Source: a virus | Lineage: Duplodnaviria > Heunggongvirae > Uroviricota > Caudoviricetes | IMG/VR virus record: IMGVR_UViG_2660238209_000013 | Coordinates: 1 to 7,328 of that record | DNA length: 7,328 bases | Direction: 5' to 3' (one strand) | Part shown: one piece after another, positions 1-7,328 of the stretch | Numbering within the stretch: the first letter of the stretch is position 1 | Layout: every line of letters begins with the position of its first letter | Notes under the pieces: model-generated | The model's database searches: none | Told to the model about the DNA's origin: nothing | The model's input: only the letters and a program-made list of their open reading frames with translations | Made by a program: the position numbers and the translations under genes

Positions 1-1341
1 CTGACCCTTTGCAGGGAAGCTGGGATACGTAACAGGATGATCCTGAAATCCCGCCAGATTGGGGCGACCTGGTATTGTGCACAGGAAGCTCTGCTGATGG
101 CGCTGCGTGACGATGTGGCGCAACCTTACCAGCGTAACCAGATTTTTTTGTCTGCGTCGCGTCGTCAGGCGTTCCAGTTTAAAAGCATTATTCAGAAGGC
201 TGCGGCTGAAGTTGATGTGGAGCTGAAAGGGGGCGATAAAATCATCCTCTCCAATGGCGCAGAGCTGCATTTTCTCGGCACTTCTGCTGCGTCGGCGCAG
301 TCCTATACGGGCAATTTTTATTTTGATGAATTTTTCTGGGTCAGTCGCTTTGCTGAACTGCGCAAGGTGGCTGGCGCTATGGCAACCCTCAGCGGACTGC
401 GGCGCACCTACTTCTCCACGCCATCCACCGAAACGCACGAAGCATACGCCTACTGGAACGGCGACCGCTGGAACGAGAAAAAGGCCACGCATAAACGCCG
501 GCGTTTTTCTGTGGACTGGAATACGCTGCATAACGGGCTTATCTGCCCTGACCGGACGTGGCGGCAAATTGTCACGCTGGAAGATGTGGTTAATCACGGC
601 TGGAAACACACCGATATCGACGAAATTCGTGATGAAAACACCGAAGACGAGTTCCTCAATCTCTATATGTGTGAGTTTGTCCGCGAAGGGGAATCGGCAT
701 TTAACCTGAATATCCTGATTGGCTGCGGTGTTGACGGATACGACGACTGGAAAGACTGGAAACCTTTTGCTCCCCGCCCGATGGGGAATCGTCCGGTATG
801 GATTGGGTATGACGCAAACGGCAGCAGTGGCAACGGCGACAGCGGCGCTGTGTCTGTGGTGGTTCCTCCGGCTGTTCCTGGTGGCCGTTTTCGAACGGTG
901 GAGACGCGACGCGTTCAGGGGCTGGAGTTTGAAGAACAGGCCAGAGTCATTGAAGAGTTCACGTGTCGCTACAACGTGGAACACATCGGCATTGATGTGA
1001 CGGGCGGGAACGGGGAGGCTGTTTATCAGATAGTGAAACGGTTTTTCCCTGCTGCTATTCCGTACACCTTCACGCTGTCATCAAAACGGTCGCTGGTACT
1101 GAAAATGCTGCAAATAATGCGTGCCGGGCGGTGGGAATACGATCGCGCCGAACGCGAGCTGGTCGCGGCCTTTAACGCCGTGCGTAAGGTGAAAACACCG
1201 GGCGGTTTTATCACTTACGAAACGGACCGCGCGAGGGGGATCAGCCACGGCGACCTTGCGTGGGCAACCATGCTTGCTGTCATTAACGAACCAATTGGCG
1301 GCGAAGGAGAAAACGAGCGTTTCACGGTTATGGAGTTCTGA
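1..1341 (+). CDS. P: Phage terminase large (ATPase/endonuclease) subunit, gpP-like; 5'-partial, the reading frame is open from base 1 so the gene starts upstream of the window
   Basis: Frame 1 has no stop from position 1 to the TGA at 1339-1341 (447 codons in window). The 434-aa ORF-track translation resembles the C-terminal nuclease region of P2-family terminase large subunits. Its stop overlaps the start of the next gene (ATGA at 1339-1343), as in the P2 PQ operon. Synteny is P-Q then accessory region then A. Identity from recall and synteny, not from a search. Confidence 0.8.
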   Translation: MTLCREAGIRNRMILKSRQIGATWYCAQEALLMALRDDVAQPYQRNQIFLSASRRQAFQFKSIIQKAAAEVDVELKGGDKIILSNGAELHFLGTSAASAQSYTGNFYFDEFFWVSRFAELRKVAGAMATLSGLRRTYFSTPSTETHEAYAYWNGDRWNEKKATHKRRRFSVDWNTLHNGLICPDRTWRQIVTLEDVVNHGWKHTDIDEIRDENTEDEFLNLYMCEFVREGESAFNLNILIGCGVDGYDDWKDWKPFAPRPMGNRPVWIGYDANGSSGNGDSGAVSVVVPPAVPGGRFRTVETRRVQGLEFEEQARVIEEFTCRYNVEHIGIDVTGGNGEAVYQIVKRFFPAAIPYTFTLSSKRSLVLKMLQIMRAGRWEYDRAERELVAAFNAVRKVKTPGGFITYETDRARGISHGDLAWATMLAVINEPIGGEGENERFTVMEF

Positions 1342-2387
1342 TGAGCAGAAAAAATAAAAAAGTGCGCATGAGTTCACGCATTGATCTCGCTGATGCGCTC
1401 AGGAAAGAATCGTCGCTCAGTGCATTCACTTTTGATGGTCCTTATCGCCTGACCGGGCATGATTTGCTGGACAATATGTACTGTGCTGATAACGGGCGGT
1501 GGTATGAAACCCCGGTGGACTGGTACGGTCTGGCAAGAGCCGCCCGGCAAACGTCCTGGCATCAGTCTGCGCTTTACTTTAAGCGCAATGTATTGCTCGG
1601 CTGCTATATTCCGCACCCGCTGCTTTCCCGGCAGGATTTCTCGGCGCTGGCGCTGGACTGGTTTGTGTTCGGTAACGCATACCTTGAGCTTCGAAGCAAT
1701 ATGCTCGGCGAACCGCTTAAATTACGGCACGCACTGGCGAAATACATGCGACGCGGAAGCGATCTTGAATCATGGTGGTATGTGCAGGATGGCAAGGACG
1801 CGTTTCAGTTTCGCCCTGGCAAAGTGTGCCACCTGATGAATCCGGATATTAACCAGGAAATCTACGGCATGCCGGAATATCTCGGCGCATTACTCTCGGC
1901 CAGCCTGTCTCATTCGGCGGACATGTTCAGAAAACTGTATTACGACAACGGATCCCACGCCGGGTGCATCATCTACATCGGTGCAGCGCAGGTAAACCGC
2001 GAAAGCATGGACTCCCTGAAAGAAACATTACAGGGTGCACGTGGTAGTGGTGCATTTAAAAACGTGCTCATTCATGCGCCCAACGGGGGCAAAGAGGGGG
2101 TGCAAATTTTGCCGTTCCAGCAGATCACCGCAAAAGATGAGTTCATGAATGTTAAGGCGGCATCCCGTGATGATGTGCTGGCTGCGCACCGTGTTCCGCC
2201 GCAACTGATGGGGGCGATGCCGGGCGAAAAAAGTGCGTTTGGTGATGTGGAGAAGGCCGCGCGGGTTTATGCAATTAACGAGCTGATGCCCGTTATGGAG
2301 GCCATGAAGCACATCAATGACTGGCTTGGCGAAGAGGTGATCCGTTTTAATTCTTATGCTCTTCTTGATGAAAAAACAGCCCCGTGA
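1341..2387 (+). CDS. Q: Phage portal (capsid portal) protein, gpQ-like
   Basis: 348-aa ORF, about the size of P2 gpQ (~344 aa). ATG at 1341 overlaps the terminase stop (ATGA). GGAG Shine-Dalgarno at 1332-1335, 5 nt upstream. Followed by a hairpin plus T-tract terminator overlapping its TGA stop. Identity from recall and synteny. Confidence 0.8.
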   Translation: MSRKNKKVRMSSRIDLADALRKESSLSAFTFDGPYRLTGHDLLDNMYCADNGRWYETPVDWYGLARAARQTSWHQSALYFKRNVLLGCYIPHPLLSRQDFSALALDWFVFGNAYLELRSNMLGEPLKLRHALAKYMRRGSDLESWWYVQDGKDAFQFRPGKVCHLMNPDINQEIYGMPEYLGALLSASLSHSADMFRKLYYDNGSHAGCIIYIGAAQVNRESMDSLKETLQGARGSGAFKNVLIHAPNGGKEGVQILPFQQITAKDEFMNVKAASRDDVLAAHRVPPQLMGAMPGEKSAFGDVEKAARVYAINELMPVMEAMKHINDWLGEEVIRFNSYALLDEKTAP

Positions 2388-2406
2388 TGGGGCTGTCCTT
2401 TTTACC
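2376..2406. terminator. Bidirectional rho-independent terminator between the convergent portal gene and the 174-aa gene
   Basis: Stem cagcccc (2377-2383) / ggggctg (2389-2395) with loop gtgat. It is flanked by an A-run upstream (aaaaaa, 2371-2376) and a T-run downstream (ccttttta, 2397-2404), so either strand gives hairpin plus U-tract. It overlaps the Q stop (2385-2387) and the TAA stop of the minus-strand gene (2402-2404). Confidence 0.6.
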
Positions 2407-2926
2407 AGAGTTGAACCATTTTCTGGGTGCCGTCAGGCTTGAGATTATCAATTTCAGAGAGAACGTAATATTGAATGGCTTCACAAACGGTGGTGTAGGG
2501 TGAATTACCTTCTTTAAGTGGCACGATATTATTATTAACGCGAACCTGTATTTCATCGTTATACATTGCGATCGAAAGAGGAGTATGCACGAAGGCGACT
2601 TCGCCAGGTGTGTCGTCAACCACTGTCTCAATGCTGAAAATCAGTTTTCGCTCATCATTGCCGCCCCTTGCTTTGGGGGTAGAGGCAGGAATCTGAGATA
2701 AAGGCATTCTGCGAAACCCTTCAGTTGTTTCCAGTCCGCATGAAACGTAATGCTGGCGATTACCGTCGCTATCAGTCCATGTCTGTGATGGCAGCTCCAG
2801 AGAGATTTCATAAGCATCTACAATTCCCTGAGCAAGGTGTACAAGCGGGGTCAGATCTTCATTGCGGCGAAAACTTTCCTTTACCTGCTCTCGTTTTTCT
2901 CGTAACTGCTTGTAATTAATGACCAT
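2402..2926 (-). CDS. Hypothetical protein, 174 aa, no family recognised; cargo gene in the Q-A accessory region
   Basis: ORF track gives 2402..2965 from a GTG. I prefer the internal ATG at 2924-2926 (protein begins MVINYKQLREK) because a GGAGG Shine-Dalgarno lies 8 nt upstream on the minus strand (AATGGAGGCTGTTTTATG). Ends with TAA at 2402-2404 inside the bidirectional terminator. Mixed-charge, globular-looking composition with no obvious transmembrane segment. Confidence 0.6.
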   Translation of the reverse strand: MVINYKQLREKREQVKESFRRNEDLTPLVHLAQGIVDAYEISLELPSQTWTDSDGNRQHYVSCGLETTEGFRRMPLSQIPASTPKARGGNDERKLIFSIETVVDDTPGEVAFVHTPLSIAMYNDEIQVRVNNNIVPLKEGNSPYTTVCEAIQYYVLSEIDNLKPDGTQKMVQLW

Positions 2927-3025
2927 AAAACAGCCTCCATTGATTTCTTTGCTCGTATTTTGCACTTATGAAGTGTGGTCGGCAAGGTGCCGCATCACTG
3001 ACGCGCTTCGCTTGTCTGCTGCTTC

Positions 3026-3054
3026 GCCGGGGCATAAAAAATTTATGCCCCGGC
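3026..3054. repeat. Perfect 13-bp inverted repeat with 3-nt spacer (gccggggcataaa aaa tttatgccccggc)
   Basis: Read directly: 3026-3038 is the exact reverse complement of 3042-3054. No U-tract follows on either strand, so this is not a classical intrinsic terminator. Candidate protein-binding palindrome or RNA hairpin. Confidence 0.85.
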
Positions 3055-3343
3055 TCTCCAGCTCCTGTATCAATCAGATAATTTCACGACGCCTTCCAGT
3101 TTATCGCCACCATCGACGGTCAGACTCTTACGCAATCCCACCGCGTTGACTGTATGTTCTCGCTGCCTCAGTGCGATTTTGACGGCCTTACCTTTCACCC
3201 CATCAAATCAAAAGCCCTCACGCCTTTTTCATGCTCAGCGTGAGAAATATGGCCATTCTGTTGTGTCTCTGCGACATCGTTCAGGGAATGCTGTTTACCC
3301 CCCTGAAACGCGGGCTGTTCCCCCGTCACCTGCGCGTAGAAAA

Positions 3344-3390
3344 AACGCGTTTTTTGTGCACGTACGGATCCTTGACGGATCCAGCCGCCA
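3344..3390. repeat. Cluster of short palindromes and a direct repeat (aaaaaacgcgtttttt; gtgcac; cgtacg; acggatcc ttg acggatcc)
   Basis: Read directly: aaaaaacgcgtttttt (3344-3359) is self-complementary. acggatcc occurs twice, 3 bp apart (3363-3370 and 3374-3381), each containing the palindrome ggatcc. Confidence 0.7.
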
Positions 3391-3425
3391 CGCGGGCCGG
3401 AAGTACAAAAAGTCGTTCAAAAAAA

Positions 3426-3455
3426 TTGTGCAAACTTGTGCACTATCGTGCAAAC
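3426..3455. repeat. Three GTGCA(A/C) repeats phased ~10 bp apart (ttgtgcaaac / ttgtgcac / cgtgcaaac); candidate iterons or operator
   Basis: GTGCAAAC at 3428-3435, GTGCAC at 3438-3443, GTGCAAAC at 3448-3455. The ~10-bp (one helical turn) spacing is typical of protein-binding iterons. A further GTGCAC is at 3355-3360. Confidence 0.5.
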
Positions 3456-3480
3456 AAAAAAAAGCGCCTTATCGGCGCTT
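3456..3480 (-). terminator. Rho-independent terminator of the 89-aa ORF transcript
   Basis: On the minus strand: stem aagcgcc / ggcgctt (plus-strand 3462-3468 and 3474-3480), 5-nt loop, followed by an 8-nt U-run (plus-strand A-run 3456-3463). It starts 9 bp downstream of the ORF stop (TGA, plus-strand 3489-3491). Confidence 0.65.
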
Positions 3481-3488
3481 CAAAAATA

Positions 3489-3758
3489 TCAATTGTTGCT
3501 GTGTATTAATCGCCAACCACGAACATATGCTTCATAAGCATCTCTGTGCCTTACAGTTCCAGCCTGGCTAAACGGAATGTTAGCTAAAACTAAATCATTC
3601 TGAGCCATAGCGCGTCCTTCAAGCGCATCTTTTATGCCTAGCTCAAAAGCACAGGCAGCGCATTTGTGCCGACCTTCTTGTCCTTGATATTCAGGGAGAG
3701 ACAGAAATGTTGGGTTATAACGATGAGGGTTCTTGCAAATACCTGTTTTAGCCCGCAC
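3489..3758 (-). CDS. Hypothetical small protein, 89 aa, GTG start; contains Cys8 and a CxxC at residues 33-36
   Basis: ORF with GTG start (plus-strand 3756-3758) preceded by a GAGGT Shine-Dalgarno 6 nt upstream (ATGAGGTAAATAAGTG) and an in-frame TAA immediately before the GTG. Followed by an intrinsic terminator. Preceded by a structured, terminator-like leader. No family recognised; coding status not certain. Confidence 0.4.
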   Translation of the reverse strand: MRAKTGICKNPHRYNPTFLSLPEYQGQEGRHKCAACAFELGIKDALEGRAMAQNDLVLANIPFSQAGTVRHRDAYEAYVRGWRLIHSNN

Positions 3759-3775
3759 TTTATTTACCTCATAGG

Positions 3776-3959
3776 AAAAATATGCGTGCCTTTACAGAGG
3801 TGCGTGTAAGCAATAAAATATACGACGCACATTTTGATTTACTTCGGAAGGCACGCATATCAGGTTAAGTGAGTCCGACCGAGTTCTACGCCCCAATAGT
3901 TGCTGCTATTGGGGCGTTTTGCATGGACAATGCCGCGCAATTATCTTGTCGCTCACAAT
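3776..3959 (-). ncRNA. Candidate structured 5' leader or small RNA upstream of the 89-aa ORF, ending in a terminator-like hairpin
   Basis: Minus-strand transcript predicted from the promoter at 3967-3994. It contains the antisense of a perfect 12-bp hairpin (3888-3917), then a 13-bp long-range stem (3780-3792 pairing 3848-3860) enclosing a 55-nt loop with its own 6-bp inner stem (gtgcgt 3800-3805 / acgcac 3825-3830). A run of 4 U follows (plus-strand A-run 3776-3779), then the SD and GTG of the 89-aa ORF. Read from sequence; no covariance or expression support. Confidence 0.3.
3888..3921 (+). terminator. Hairpin plus short T-run; possible plus-strand intrinsic terminator (or just a stable hairpin in the minus-strand leader)
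   Basis: Perfect 12-bp stem acgccccaatag (3888-3899) / ctattggggcgt (3906-3917), 6-nt loop, followed by ttt g (3918-3921). No convincing plus-strand promoter found upstream, so function on the plus strand is uncertain. Confidence 0.35.
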
Positions 3960-3966
3960 GCGAACG

Positions 3967-3994
3967 ATCTTACAAAAAGGCACATTACTGTCAA
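3967..3994 (-). promoter_or_regulatory. Strong sigma70-like promoter on the minus strand (TTGACA - 16 nt - TAAGAT) with AT-rich upstream region
   Basis: Minus-strand sequence attatcTTGACAgtaatgtgcctttttgTAAGATcgttcg. The -35 is a perfect TTGACA (plus-strand 3989-3994), spacer 16 nt, -10 TAAGAT (plus-strand 3967-3972). The upstream 60 bp is AT-rich (UP-element-like). A GATC (3966-3969) overlaps the -10. Confidence 0.5.
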
Positions 3995-4122
3995 GATAAT
4001 TGATCGTTTTAATCGATAGATAATAGACAATCTATTTGTTTAACAGATCGATTATTGAAGTAAGTGCGCCAAATGGAATGATACTGTTTCTATAAATGTG
4101 AGCATTTTTCGCGCAGATGCTT

Positions 4123-4434
4123 TTACTCAGGAAATAACGCCCGGATATTCCCAGCCATCTGGCTGGTTATCTTAGCCACTGGTGCAGACTGTGCTTCAAA
4201 CTTTTTTGAGCTGATTTGTGTCACAGGTAACATCTCATCATCAGCCCATGCGGCCAGTCGGTAAGCCTCTGCCGGATTCGTCTTCAGAAGTGCCAGCCCG
4301 GCCAGAAAAGCCACGCGTTGGCCGCTTTTGCGGGCTTCTGGTGTAAGGCTGTCCAGCCAGGCGCATGCTTCTCCTTCGTTCTTGACGGCAGCTGGCTTCA
4401 GATAGAAACTTATTCTTCTGGTTGGTGTCGTCAT
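4123..4434 (-). CDS. parR: ParR/StbB-like small DNA-binding protein (putative centromere-binding adaptor), 103 aa
   Basis: Immediately downstream of the ParM-like gene (4-nt gap). Strong AAGGAG Shine-Dalgarno 7 nt upstream of the ATG, inside the end of the upstream gene. Size and motifs (N-terminal RRISFYLKP, AGLAL, C-terminal LFPE) resemble plasmid R1 ParR as I recall it. Gene order repeats-parM-parR matches R1 parC-parM-parR. Confidence 0.7.
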   Translation of the reverse strand: MTTPTRRISFYLKPAAVKNEGEACAWLDSLTPEARKSGQRVAFLAGLALLKTNPAEAYRLAAWADDEMLPVTQISSKKFEAQSAPVAKITSQMAGNIRALFPE

Positions 4435-4438
4435 TGGT

Positions 4439-5398
4439 TTACTCCTTGTTCATTGCGTACAGCCCATTAACCAGAGCAAAATGTGGCACCCCGTCCGTGA
4501 TGAAAGTCGCATTAACTCCGCAGGCTTCGCGGATAGCGGGTGCCACAATCTCCGCCCCTCCACCGACAACCATCACCCGCCCGTAACCGGAAAAACCCGC
4601 CAGCGCGCGGATCACTCGTTGTTTCAGTGTCTCCTCCTTTTCACGAATAACCGCCATCAGGCTGTTGTAATGCGCGTCATTGTGAATGTGCTGGCGCAGC
4701 CAGGCTTCATCGTGACGGTGCTCAATAATGGTATTGGCGATGTGGTGACTGGTACGCATACCGTTAGTGGCCATCACCGACAGCACGGCATCAGCCATCA
4801 GGGAAACGCCTACGTGTGGATCGCAAAACACCTGGCTGATACCTGCCAGCTGCCCCTGAACCTTTGCCACATCCAGCGTGGTTCCGCCCAAATCCACAAT
4901 CAGCAGGGATTCAAACGGACTCATGTCAGCCAGTGCCTTAAAGCCAGCCGGAATGGATTCAGGCATAACCCGCACGTTACGGATAGTGAATGCTTCGCCG
5001 TTCTGGTACTCCACCGGGCGCATAACGTTCGCTTTTTTGCGGTTGATGTTGGCTATGTCCGGCTGTGCGTTTGTGTCGAAATACTCGCTCAGTGGCAGGG
5101 TGACAACCACATCCACCTCCTGTGGCGTGATGCCTGATTTGACCAGCGCGTGATGAATGGCAATGACATTCACATCACTGTATTGGTATTGCGTGTCGGT
5201 CGTCTGGACAAAGCGATCGCTGACCGGATCAAAACCATAGCGCACGCCATCAAGCATGTAGTTCGCGGGCTGCGTGCCACCGAACGGCGCAGACCATTCC
5301 GACTTGAAGCTGTTCGGGCTGATGGCGTTGCGGCGTTCGCCGTTCTCAGTCCATGCCAGCTTGATGTTGGTGGAGCCGTCGTCGATACAAATTTTCAT
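4439..5398 (-). CDS. parM: ParM/StbA-family actin-like segregation ATPase, 319 aa
   Basis: ATG at plus-strand 5396-5398 with an AAGGA Shine-Dalgarno ~8 nt upstream. The translation carries the ParM/actin-fold signatures throughout: N-terminal DDGSTNIKL (phosphate-1), SPNSF, YSDVNVIAIHHAL, VMPESIPAG, IVDLGGTTLD (phosphate-2), GGGAE (adenosine motif) and C-terminal LVNG. It appears collinear with plasmid R1 ParM over the full length (from memory). Confidence 0.88.
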   Translation of the reverse strand: MKICIDDGSTNIKLAWTENGERRNAISPNSFKSEWSAPFGGTQPANYMLDGVRYGFDPVSDRFVQTTDTQYQYSDVNVIAIHHALVKSGITPQEVDVVVTLPLSEYFDTNAQPDIANINRKKANVMRPVEYQNGEAFTIRNVRVMPESIPAGFKALADMSPFESLLIVDLGGTTLDVAKVQGQLAGISQVFCDPHVGVSLMADAVLSVMATNGMRTSHHIANTIIEHRHDEAWLRQHIHNDAHYNSLMAVIREKEETLKQRVIRALAGFSGYGRVMVVGGGAEIVAPAIREACGVNATFITDGVPHFALVNGLYAMNKE

Positions 5399-5427
5399 GT
5401 CGCTTTTCCTTATGTTGATTAATTAAT

Positions 5428-5541
5428 CGTTTACGGGATTCTGAAATCCCGTTTTTGCCTGTTTTGTGCGCGCTTCATATATCGCTGCGCGTTTTTTGCT
5501 CATTTACGGGATTCGTGAGTCCCGTTTCTGTCTGTTTTTTG
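5428..5541. repeat. Two ~40-bp direct repeats, each containing an 8-bp-arm palindrome (acgggatt ... aatcccgt) followed by a T-rich tract; candidate parC-like centromere or operator
   Basis: Copy 1 tttacgggattctgaaatcccgtttttgcctgttttgtg (5430-5468) and copy 2 tttacgggattcgtgagtcccgtttctgtctgttttttg (5503-5541) are ~80% identical, 73 bp apart. Copy 1 lies between the A stop and the parM start; copy 2 lies inside the last ~25 codons of the A reading frame. Confidence 0.5.
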
Positions 5542-6916
5542 TTTCCACTGGTCAGGCCACCCTGCAGCAGGTCTGCTTTGCGGCTGGCGCGTTCAGTGGT
5601 TTCACTGATTCTCTGTGCGTGCTCTGCGTCGCGGATGGCGCGCAGCATGTCAGAAAGCACGGTAACGGGTGTTTTCATGGTGTTCTGATCCTGCTGAAGT
5701 GCGGATGCCAGGCGTGCGGCGGCTTCGGGGTCTGATGCCCCCAGCTGTGCCAGATAGCTGGCGACCGGGTTATGGCGGATCTCCGTGCTGCTTACGCCGT
5801 GATTACGGCTCAGGTGCTGCCAGAGCTGCGTGATTCGGCTGTCCGGGCGGGGATCCGGTTTGCGTACAATTTCATATCCCTGCGGTGCAATGATGCTGCC
5901 GTCAACGTACAGGCTGCCGCCCCGTAGCAGGTGCTGCATCTGCTGTTCACCGATATGCAGGCCGAGAGATTCGGCAGACTCCCGCCATTCTTTAGCGAGT
6001 AATTCGTGGTTATCAGGCAAAGGCCGCTGCTGTTTGCGGCTCTGTGTCCAGCTCTGCATTTCATCACTGCTGTTTTTTGCCTGTTTGTCACGAAGCGAAC
6101 GCATCAGCGCCCGGCGTTCGTGCCGTTTCAGTGAGCGCATCCATTCGTTCACTTCAACGCCGTCAGGGAGCTGCGGCCACGGTGCTGGCCGTTCTTCCGG
6201 CTGTTCTGCCCCGTTGTTGTCCGTTTCCTGTACACGGGGACAGTTATTGCCACGAGTCCAAGGGGCGGCAGGGCCGCCCTGAAGGTCAAAACCATTTTCG
6301 CGGGCGCTGTCTTCCGTTTCCGGTTTACGTCTTACCAGTTTCCAGTTATCCGGATGCGTGCACACACGGGAGGATTCCCCGATGAGTGGTGACCAGATCC
6401 CGTAAATCTGTACGCTCTGTTCGCCGTAATCATTCAGCTCATCTGCGAGGTCGTAGGCGGTGCGAATCAGGTAGTCTTTGCGTGGAACAAGTACGCCGCC
6501 CTGTTTTTCAATGTAGGTGGCAAAACACCCGGCATCGGCGGCAGCGAGTACCGCATCCATTGCATCATCTTTCAGCCGTTGCGGGCCTTCCGGATTGCGT
6601 GCCATCTGGCTGGCAAGGCGGCGCAGTTCACGCCACACCTGACGGGAGGGGATGCCAAAGAACTGGAACTGACGGACCCGGTGAAGGCGCGCCCAGCCGA
6701 TGGCGCGCTCCACGCTCTCGGCCATTGATTTTCCGGTTTCGTGGTCAACGCGTGGCTTGCCCGTTTTCGGGTCGATGCCATCCACGGCGCGGCTGTCCAG
6801 GTTCTTTCCGATGTAGGTGGCGATGTAGCTGGTTGGTGTGCCTTTTGAGCCGTCGACATACTCCGCCTTAAAACGCGGAGTTATGTCATCGCCCAGCTCG
6901 TGGCGGTCCTCCTGAA
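5475..6916 (-). pseudogene. A: 3' portion of a gpA-like rolling-circle replication initiator (phage replication endonuclease), N-terminal part removed by IS insertion
   Basis: The minus-strand frame is open from the IS boundary (~6917) to the stop at 5475-5477 (ORF track starts at GTG 6785 but no stop intervenes upstream). I translated the sequence just inside the boundary as ...GSKGTPTSYIATYIGKNLDSRAVDGIDPK..., which contains a Y-x-x-x-Y-x-x-K motif (codons at plus-strand 6813-6827) like the paired catalytic tyrosines of P2 A and phiX174 gene A proteins. The frame runs straight into the IS terminal repeat. Position opposite Q across the accessory region matches P2 gene order. Confidence 0.65.
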
Positions 6917-6970
6917 TGAACCGCCCCGGAAATCCTGGAGACTAAACTCCCTGAGAAAGAGGTAAACAGG

Positions 6971-7297
6971 ATGACTAAAAATACTCGTTTTTCCCCCGAA
7001 GTCCGTCAGCGGGCGATTCGTATGGTTCTGGAAAGTCAGGATGAATATGACTCACAGTGGGCGGCAATTTGTTCCATTGCCCCAAAGATTGGCTGTACGC
7101 CGGAGACTCTGCGTGTCTGGGTTCGCCAGCATGAGCGGGATACCGGGGGCGGTGATGGTGGGCTCACCAGCGCTGAACGTCAGCGTCTGAAAGAGCTGGA
7201 ACGTGAAAATCGTGAACTGCGCCGCAGTAACGATATCCTTCGCCAGGCTTCCGCTTATTTTGCGAAGGCGGAGTTCGACCGCCTCTGGAAAAAATGA
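6971..7297 (+). CDS. IS3-family transposase OrfA (helix-turn-helix / leucine-zipper subunit), 108 aa
   Basis: Complete ORF. Protein [23 protein letters not shown]...[36 protein letters not shown] has the typical IS3-family OrfA HTH plus coiled-coil and a C-terminus ending at the frameshift window. AGG Shine-Dalgarno-like GAGG at 6958-6961. Confidence 0.9.
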
Positions 7298-7328
7298 TGC
7301 CACTGCTGGATAAGCTGCGTGAGCAGTA
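7294..7328 (+). CDS. IS3-family transposase OrfB (DDE catalytic subunit), 5' end only; expressed by -1 frameshift from orfA
   Basis: ATGATGCCACTGCTGGATAAGCTGCGTGAGCAG (7294 onward) translates [11 protein letters not shown], which matches the IS629-type OrfB N-terminus as I recall it. It is in the -1 frame relative to orfA and overlaps its stop. Runs off the window. Confidence 0.7.

Follow-up and report, generated by a model that had tools for sequence, protein, structure and literature searches.

The interval between the portal gene Q and the replication gene A of P2-like phages is a recognised accessory site, described as the tin/old ('TO') hotspot (Odegrip et al. 2006, cited in Rousset et al. 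2022, PMC9122126). A survey of 18,150 of these gpA-gpQ loci in E. coli distinguished 1,650 arrangements, with about a fourth of P2-like phages carrying a putative plasmid partitioning system in the hotspot, which might let prophages persist as plasmids (Rousset et al. 2022, PMC9122126). The locus described here lies in a stretch of 7,328 nucleotides (nt) from a virus (IMG/VR virus record IMGVR_UViG_2660238209_000013, positions 1 to 7,328; the whole stretch analysed is hereafter called the window). Its exact arrangement is tabulated by accession in the same survey, beside many variants in which the StbA/Plasmid_stab_B pair occurs with other companions. Prior publication covers the hotspot and its diversity as well as the partition system and this gene arrangement. 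Added here are a finer map, in which exact junctions delimit two slots around a probable packaging block, along with a candidate centromere and evidence for placing the 174-amino-acid (174-aa) protein encoded in the interval in a family.

Four blocks between Q and A

The window was found to match chromosomes of E. coli O111, among them NC_013364.1 (O111:H- 11128), at 99.9-100% identity; in the latter genome it lies in a P2-type prophage that adjoins btuC and that as a whole has the P2-type gene order. The closest phages to this prophage are P88 and its relatives (Xuanwuvirus, Peduoviridae) and not P2. The interval between Q and A is very probably the gpA-gpQ ('tin-old') accessory hotspot of a P88-like prophage of the P2 family, situated close to the probable cohesive-end packaging site (cos) and composed of four independently recombining blocks. 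Four genes were identified between Q and A, all on the minus strand, namely the 174-aa gene, an open reading frame (ORF) of 89 amino acids, parR and parM, and comparison with relatives divided the entire interval as follows:

1341-2387, plus strand: portal gene Q, which flanks the hotspot on the left (PF04860 and phrog_68, E 1.7e-153)
2363-2989, minus strand: slot-1 cassette, in which one gene has been inserted between Q and the conserved block
2990-3465, no strand assigned: conserved non-coding block of 476 bp, 91-96% identical in all P88-like phages
~3454/3466-4122, minus strand: slot-2 cassette, comprising the 89-aa ORF and a structured leader
4123-5474: parR-parM cassette, shared at 93-97% identity with all P88-like phages compared (extending to ~5560 with the upstream palindromes)
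5475-6917, minus strand: remnant of the replication endonuclease gene A, the right flank (C-terminal 480 residues, 461-940 of 940)

Block boundaries were determined using BLASTN against seven P88-like phage records and then against IMG/VR contigs sharing a 24-mer of the conserved block (at least 120 contigs by exact match; all contig counts given here hold among the matches listed). Pairwise comparison with the seven phages placed the junctions at 2362/2990, ~3453-3465 and 4123. The blocks were found to differ in guanine-cytosine (GC) content, with values of 45.1% for slot 1, 51.3% for the conserved block, 41.7% for slot 2 and 53.6% for parR-parM, compared to 53.7% for P/Q and 58.3% for A in the backbone. 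They also differ in frequency among 5426 complete E. coli genomes, slot 1 being carried by 397, the conserved block by 1101, slot 2 by 166 and parR-parM by 1278 (~24%). Divergence is likewise uneven, as comparison of the window with phage 520873 showed differences of 0.4-1.7% in slot 2, 5% in the conserved block and ~4% on the parR-parM/A side. A slot 2 less diverged than its flanks is the pattern expected for a cassette recently moved between diverged backbones. Because frequency, GC content and divergence differ from block to block, and because parMR can be swapped (see below), it is concluded that the blocks have been exchanged separately, in agreement with an earlier note on this DNA which had proposed that the interval was assembled from modules of different origin.

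The same note had described the interval as holding parMR-like genes, a 174-aa unknown and a small ORF in place of the old and tin genes of P2, and this description was borne out. All of the listed genes are present, and neither old nor tin lies between the end of Q at 2387 and the start of A at 5475. P2 carries orf91, tin and old at this position, and BLASTN of P2 against 2388-5474 revealed no similarity. The proposed non-coding share of ~1.2 kb, or ~40%, is of the right order and slightly high, with 1020 of 3087 bp (33%) being non-coding if the 89-aa ORF is counted as coding, or 1290 bp (42%) otherwise. The non-coding DNA is indeed structured, with 12 terminator-like hairpins compared to 4.1 +/- 2.4 in shuffled sequences and fold z-scores of -4.6 to -6.4 for individual hairpins. 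As for the proposal of hotspot-style cargo replacement, the site is the recognised hotspot, but in the P88-like lineage parMR is what normally occupies it, and 2990-3465 belongs to the backbone, so that the truly variable parts are the two small slots flanking the conserved block. The gene set as a whole is not core among P2-like phages, while parMR is core-like within one lineage.

The parR-parM cassette and its palindromes

The cassette beside A, together with the repeats upstream of it, was found to contain the following features:

4123-4434, minus strand: parR, centromere-binding adaptor (PF10784, E 9.8e-24; phrog_2515, E 2e-59), beginning 4 bp after the parM stop codon
4439-5398, minus strand: parM, actin-like segregation ATPase (PF06406, E 3.5e-82; PF21523, E 2.5e-67)
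5427-5541, no strand assigned: two 42-nt repeats, with the palindrome ACGGGATT-N4-AATCCCGT at 5433-5452 and 5506-5525

Residues 2-316 of ParM align over the full length to ParM of plasmid R1 (1mwk; E 3.5e-92), with the phosphate- and adenosine-binding motifs IDDGSTNIKL, DLGGTTLD and GGGAE retained, and the gene appears intact as judged from its sequence. A search of ParR by sequence against solved structures gave no match. Among ParM proteins on typed plasmid backbones, the nearest is only ~52% identical, which points to an old phage lineage of this partition system. A scan of contigs for distant phage-borne parMR returned only relatives of 97-98% identity.

The two palindromes are located 35 and 108 nt upstream of the parM start, with the second copy lying within the last codons of A. 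Only two copies were found in a complete phage genome of 34.5 kb, and likewise only two in a locus of 47 kb. Both were present at fixed positions in all 42 parM-positive contigs, and none was found in 32 of the 33 contigs that were parM-negative and A-positive. The arms of the palindrome are conserved, while its 4-nt spacer varies. These elements are treated as a candidate parC centromere and/or ParR operator. No similar palindromes were found upstream of the parM of an IncF plasmid, whose ParM is 52% identical. Between A and parM, neither a sigma-70-like promoter nor a minus-strand terminator was detected; because the cassette also lies directly downstream of A, parMR is probably read with the early replication operon.

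Occupancy of the site was compared among 41 IMG/VR contigs that share this backbone (identity of at least 84% for Q and at least 87% for A). parM was present in 34 of these and also in every P88-like phage record examined. Its GC content matches that of P/Q, its divergence of ~4-5% equals that of the flanking A, and the distance from plasmid-borne ParM noted above argues against recent acquisition from a plasmid. These observations would fit parMR being a backbone function that defines the P88-like lineage and is needed for its life cycle, in which case the difference from P2 would have arisen by descent and not by replacement. This explanation is possible but somewhat unlikely, since the remaining seven contigs (Q at least 98% and A 93-97% identical) carry unrelated cargo, and other P2-like lineages with the same conserved block have no parMR. 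The replacements comprise a large P-loop NTPase-like protein, an antitoxin-like and Fic/Doc-like pair, an ATPase with a methyltransferase-like gene, and a three-gene set, these labels being a reading of the translated sequences and not the result of family scans. The right junctions in contigs lacking parMR fall at 5522, 5575 or 5591, within the last codons of A, with one at 5349. The contig with the junction at 5349 (L097) has retained the first 50 nt of parM (window 5349-5398) and both palindromes beside the antitoxin-like and Fic/Doc-like pair, and this scar indicates that parMR was replaced there. parMR is thus the default occupant of the P88-like lineage, yet a replaceable one.

Two database records touch on the distribution of the cassette. 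NZ_CP148288.1 (L011, 1-34461), a circular E. coli 'plasmid' record of 34.5 kb, consists of a whole P88-like genome with parMR, in which the gene for the integrase stands terminally in the record. It may represent a genuine episome, or else an excised circle that the assembler picked up. NZ_JBQPOM010000071.1 (L023), a contig labelled as the Gram-positive Vagococcus sp., encodes a ParM 97% identical to that of the window prophage, and is probably the product of assembly contamination.

The conserved block and the two slots

The main features of the conserved non-coding block are listed below:

3026-3054: perfect 13-bp hairpin GCCGGGGCATAAA / TTTATGCCCCGGC (-24 kcal/mol, z -6.25)
3312-3335: invariant 24-mer GGGCTGTTCCCCCGTCACCTGCGC, shared without change by P88-like phages and phages of other genera
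~3389-3407: core similar to P2/186 cos; related lineages show a G-rich motif like the cohesive end of P2/186
3425-3453: three GTGCA repeats with exact 10-bp spacing, preceded by an A-run and nearly invariant across 45 P2-like lineages

The part at 3309-3458 is recognisable in Enterobacter phage phiT5282H, which belongs to another genus and lacks parMR. The 24-mer lies 245-330 bp past the end of Q in contigs in which Q is only 68-73% and A ~31% identical, and at a distance of 927 bp when slot 1 is filled. Homology among the 45 non-redundant lineages ends right after the third GTGCA repeat (~3453), beyond which all diverge. Repeats phased at 10 bp are typical of protein binding, and the terminase small subunit or a late-gene activator may be guessed at as the protein concerned. 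The ends of the linear record NC_049391 correspond to window 3406/3407. On the basis of its position, its conservation at a fixed distance from Q, the phased repeats, the partial likeness of its motif and the ends of this one record, the block is probably the cos packaging region; it is backbone and not cargo. The cos itself is likely to lie inside 3312-3407; the motifs at 3312-3335, 3376-3394 and 3389-3407 were considered and none could be fixed as the nick site. The hairpin at 3026-3054, which has no T-run on either strand and stands directly past the Q stop codon in phages with an empty slot 1, is a candidate Q terminator or protein site. Long plus-strand ORFs in the block (e.g. 3146-3571) were rejected as genes, as no family was hit by them and close relatives differ there by single-base indels.

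Features of slot 1 were identified as follows:

2371-2401, no strand assigned: hairpin (inverted repeat) between A- and T-runs, its loop containing the Q stop codon; 2376-2396 with its T-run is terminator-like
2402-2926, minus strand: 174-aa gene (phrog_5091) with a GGAGG ribosome-binding site; 2927-2989 holds a plausible promoter

Homology to P88-type phages with an empty slot 1 extends as far as 2362. The cassette replaces the last 8 codons of Q, from 2363, and supplies a new Q stop codon, whereas in phages with an empty slot the Q stop is joined directly to the sequence starting at window 2990. Slot 1 is filled in PhiR44_2 and PV468777 and empty in P88, P88_4B11, 520873 and PhiSM (Shae_phiSM). 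The hairpin at 2371-2401 is probably a bidirectional terminator serving both Q and the 174-aa gene. Close relatives of the 174-aa protein were found in Escherichia, Salmonella and Trabulsiella, and a profile search yielded 87 representatives at 50% identity with a conserved Y, S-L, W, Y-V, T-V-x-D-D and C. By this sequence evidence the protein is a member of a real and widespread uncharacterised family, located mostly in prophage accessory slots. It gave no match to Pfam, NCBIfam, PADLOC or the sequences of the PDB, and its AlphaFold2 (AF2) model, with a predicted local distance difference test score (pLDDT) of 77, gave no confident fold match.

Slot 2 was found to contain the following:

3454-3481, minus strand: intrinsic terminator after the 89-aa ORF (stem 3481-3461 and T-run; z -4.6), at the border of slot 2 and the conserved block
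3489-3758, minus strand: 89-aa ORF (GTG start; GAGG ribosome-binding site; CxxC motif; phrog_3941, E 6e-49)
3759-4122, minus strand: AT-rich leader/promoter region with hairpin z-scores of -3.9 to -6.4, including a leader of ~200 nt with two long hairpins
3780-3860: long hairpin in the leader
3888-3917: 13-bp hairpin in the leader, followed by TTTT on the plus strand
3994-3967, minus strand: promoter-like site bracketed by an 11-nt inverted repeat (3938-3948 / 3992-4002)

Copies of this slot are 98.6-100% identical wherever they occur, and the version in the window is shared with phage 520873. Elsewhere the slot holds two small genes (P88), four small genes (PhiR44_2), a DUF4760 gene and one other (PV468777) or a membrane-protein gene (PhiSM). 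Homologues of the 89-aa protein form only 2 clusters among 5.8 billion proteins. Five alleles of the ORF differ at three variable sites only, by 2 synonymous changes and 1 non-synonymous change without indels, and its protein-coding nature is weakly supported. The protein had no match in PADLOC, Pfam or NCBIfam, and its single-sequence AF2 model (pLDDT 44) was unusable.

These two small cassettes sit where many neighbouring cassettes have proved to be anti-phage genes, and the 174-aa gene, the 89-aa cassette or both might accordingly be undescribed anti-phage or anti-defence genes of the kind typical of the hotspot. Both cassettes are AT-rich, self-contained and patchily distributed, and relatives of the 174-aa protein occupy classic accessory slots, one in a P2-like prophage of Trabulsiella, beside gpA and accompanied by HicB and Phd/Fic modules, and another in a lambdoid prophage, between NinG and holin. 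Such a role is nonetheless doubtful for either gene. A remote relative was located within a cluster of baseplate genes and further ones in ordinary chromosomal contexts, neither protein offers a fold or domain clue, and PADLOC-DB v2 models had no match at E <= 0.1 among eight ORFs of the interval, these two included. Neither accession appears in the table of tested systems of Rousset et al. 2022 (PMC9122126), and a search for the accessions of the small proteins and for P88_4B11/LR595891 found nothing in the main texts of searchable papers.

The earlier note had also taken the unusual extent of non-coding DNA as a sign of RNA function. This suggestion did not hold for about half of that DNA, since 2990-3465 is backbone and likely cos, with no Rfam match. 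For slot 2, a functional RNA can be envisaged in the form of a possible plus-strand transcript of ~97 nt (3826-3922), which would act as an antisense RNA controlling the 89-aa ORF in the manner of antisense immunity or of a type I toxin-antitoxin system. A plus-strand promoter-like site (3791-3819) is followed by the 13-bp hairpin with its T-run (3888-3922), the hairpin has no T-run on the minus strand and as a terminator would serve plus-strand transcription, and the fold z-scores of the leader are low. This explanation is quite unlikely, however, as the hairpins fold about equally well on both strands, promoter-like hits are not enriched (3 compared to 3.7 in shuffles), and the 89-aa product is not hydrophobic as type I toxins are. 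The module is too uniform for covariation, and Rfam 15 returned no family at or above its gathering score over 2388-5474, the lone match being sar (22 bits, E 0.84), whose gathering score is 43.

The state of the prophage bears on how the cargo is to be seen. The A remnant is 98% identical to residues 461-940 of P88 A and is labelled 'incomplete, missing N-terminus' in RefSeq. The remaining features of the window are:

Ending at 1341, plus strand: terminase gene P, 5'-truncated by the window edge, with its first in-frame start at 37
~6917-7328: left end of the insertion sequence IS1203 (IS3 family), inserted in gene A and removing residues 1-460 of A

The early region of the prophage has also been deleted. 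As A is reduced to residues 461-940, the prophage cannot replicate itself, and because it is defective, the cargo in the window is a passenger. It could be supposed that the non-coding DNA is decayed gene debris of this dying prophage, with A cut by IS1203 and the early region deleted, but this is scarcely credible, as the same blocks are 91-100% identical in phages that are inducible or form plaques, P88 and PhiSM among them, and in hundreds of genomes, with sub-motifs invariant across genera. An ALIL frameshift pseudoknot of the IS1203 transposase (Rfam RF01497, 66.7 bits) was identified at 7252-7328, where it is cut by the end of the window. A serine O-acetyltransferase gene was also found between the tail genes of the same prophage (L001 7851-8423), at what is presumed to be the second (Z/fun-type) accessory site of P2.

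Comparison with known systems

Under the main interpretation of the partition cassette, ParR would bind the palindromes upstream of parM, and ParM filaments would push circular phage genomes apart. The extrachromosomal form of the phage would in this way be stabilised before integration or after excision, and its genomes spread to daughter cells. In the most economical mechanism, ParMR would act only transiently, while the early operon is on. A further suggestion, unlikely as a whole to be correct, is that P88-like phages use a dedicated ParMR and a minimal centromere of two palindromes to segregate or position circular genomes, for example during non-integrated carriage through cell divisions, and/or that the 174-aa family is a new single-gene phage-exclusion or anti-defence factor. 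If true, such use of ParMR would represent a facultative, plasmid-like state among phages whose family is considered strictly integrating.

Several observations weigh against the interpretation of the interval as a cos-proximal hotspot with a working partition cassette and two small genes. A 19-nt cos of the P2/186/P4 type (GGCGAGGCGGGGAAAGCAC) was not found in the window even when 3 mismatches were allowed, and Smith-Waterman alignment of the conserved block to the circularised cos region of P2 scored no better than shuffles. No promoter was detected for parM, and two spaced palindromes are unlike in layout to the centromere iterons of R1, whose parC consists of ten 11-bp iterons around the promoter. 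The carrier here is not an autonomously replicating low-copy replicon and is also defective. Across complete E. coli genomes, 1449 of the 1451 places with parR-parM are chromosomal, so that any plasmid state is not the stable one, and a stably plasmid-borne form is rare at best. Variation in the 89-aa ORF is too small for a coding test, and no family, fold or defence model was matched by either small protein.

Compared to the cos of P2, which lies 186 bp beyond Q, the conserved block is alike in its position past Q, in an intergenic length comparable to the ~400 bp of P2 and in a G-rich core like GGCG..GGAAAG.CA. It differs in that the 19-nt sequence is absent, no significant alignment was obtained and the similar motif has an ambiguous orientation.

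P88 and Citrobacter phage PhiSM, both of Xuanwuvirus, share a backbone of 95-98% identity with the window prophage in P, Q, the conserved block, parR, parM and A. P88 differs in its empty slot 1 and in two other small genes in slot 2, PhiSM in the membrane-protein gene of its slot 2, and both have an intact A.

The ParMRC system of plasmid R1 (stbA/stbB of NR1) is similar in its full-length ParM, its ParR of the PF10784 family, the order parM-parR and the presence of repeats upstream of parM. Here, in contrast, the system belongs to an integrating phage, is found almost only in chromosomes, lacks a detected parM promoter and has a ParM only ~50% identical.

The locus also corresponds to the gpA-gpQ (TO) hotspot itself, as both are sited between Q and A, beside a packaging site that is a probable one here, and vary in content among near-identical backbones. 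Nothing essential differs between the two; the published survey treats the interval as one locus, whereas here it is resolved into two slots, a conserved block and a semi-fixed parMR.

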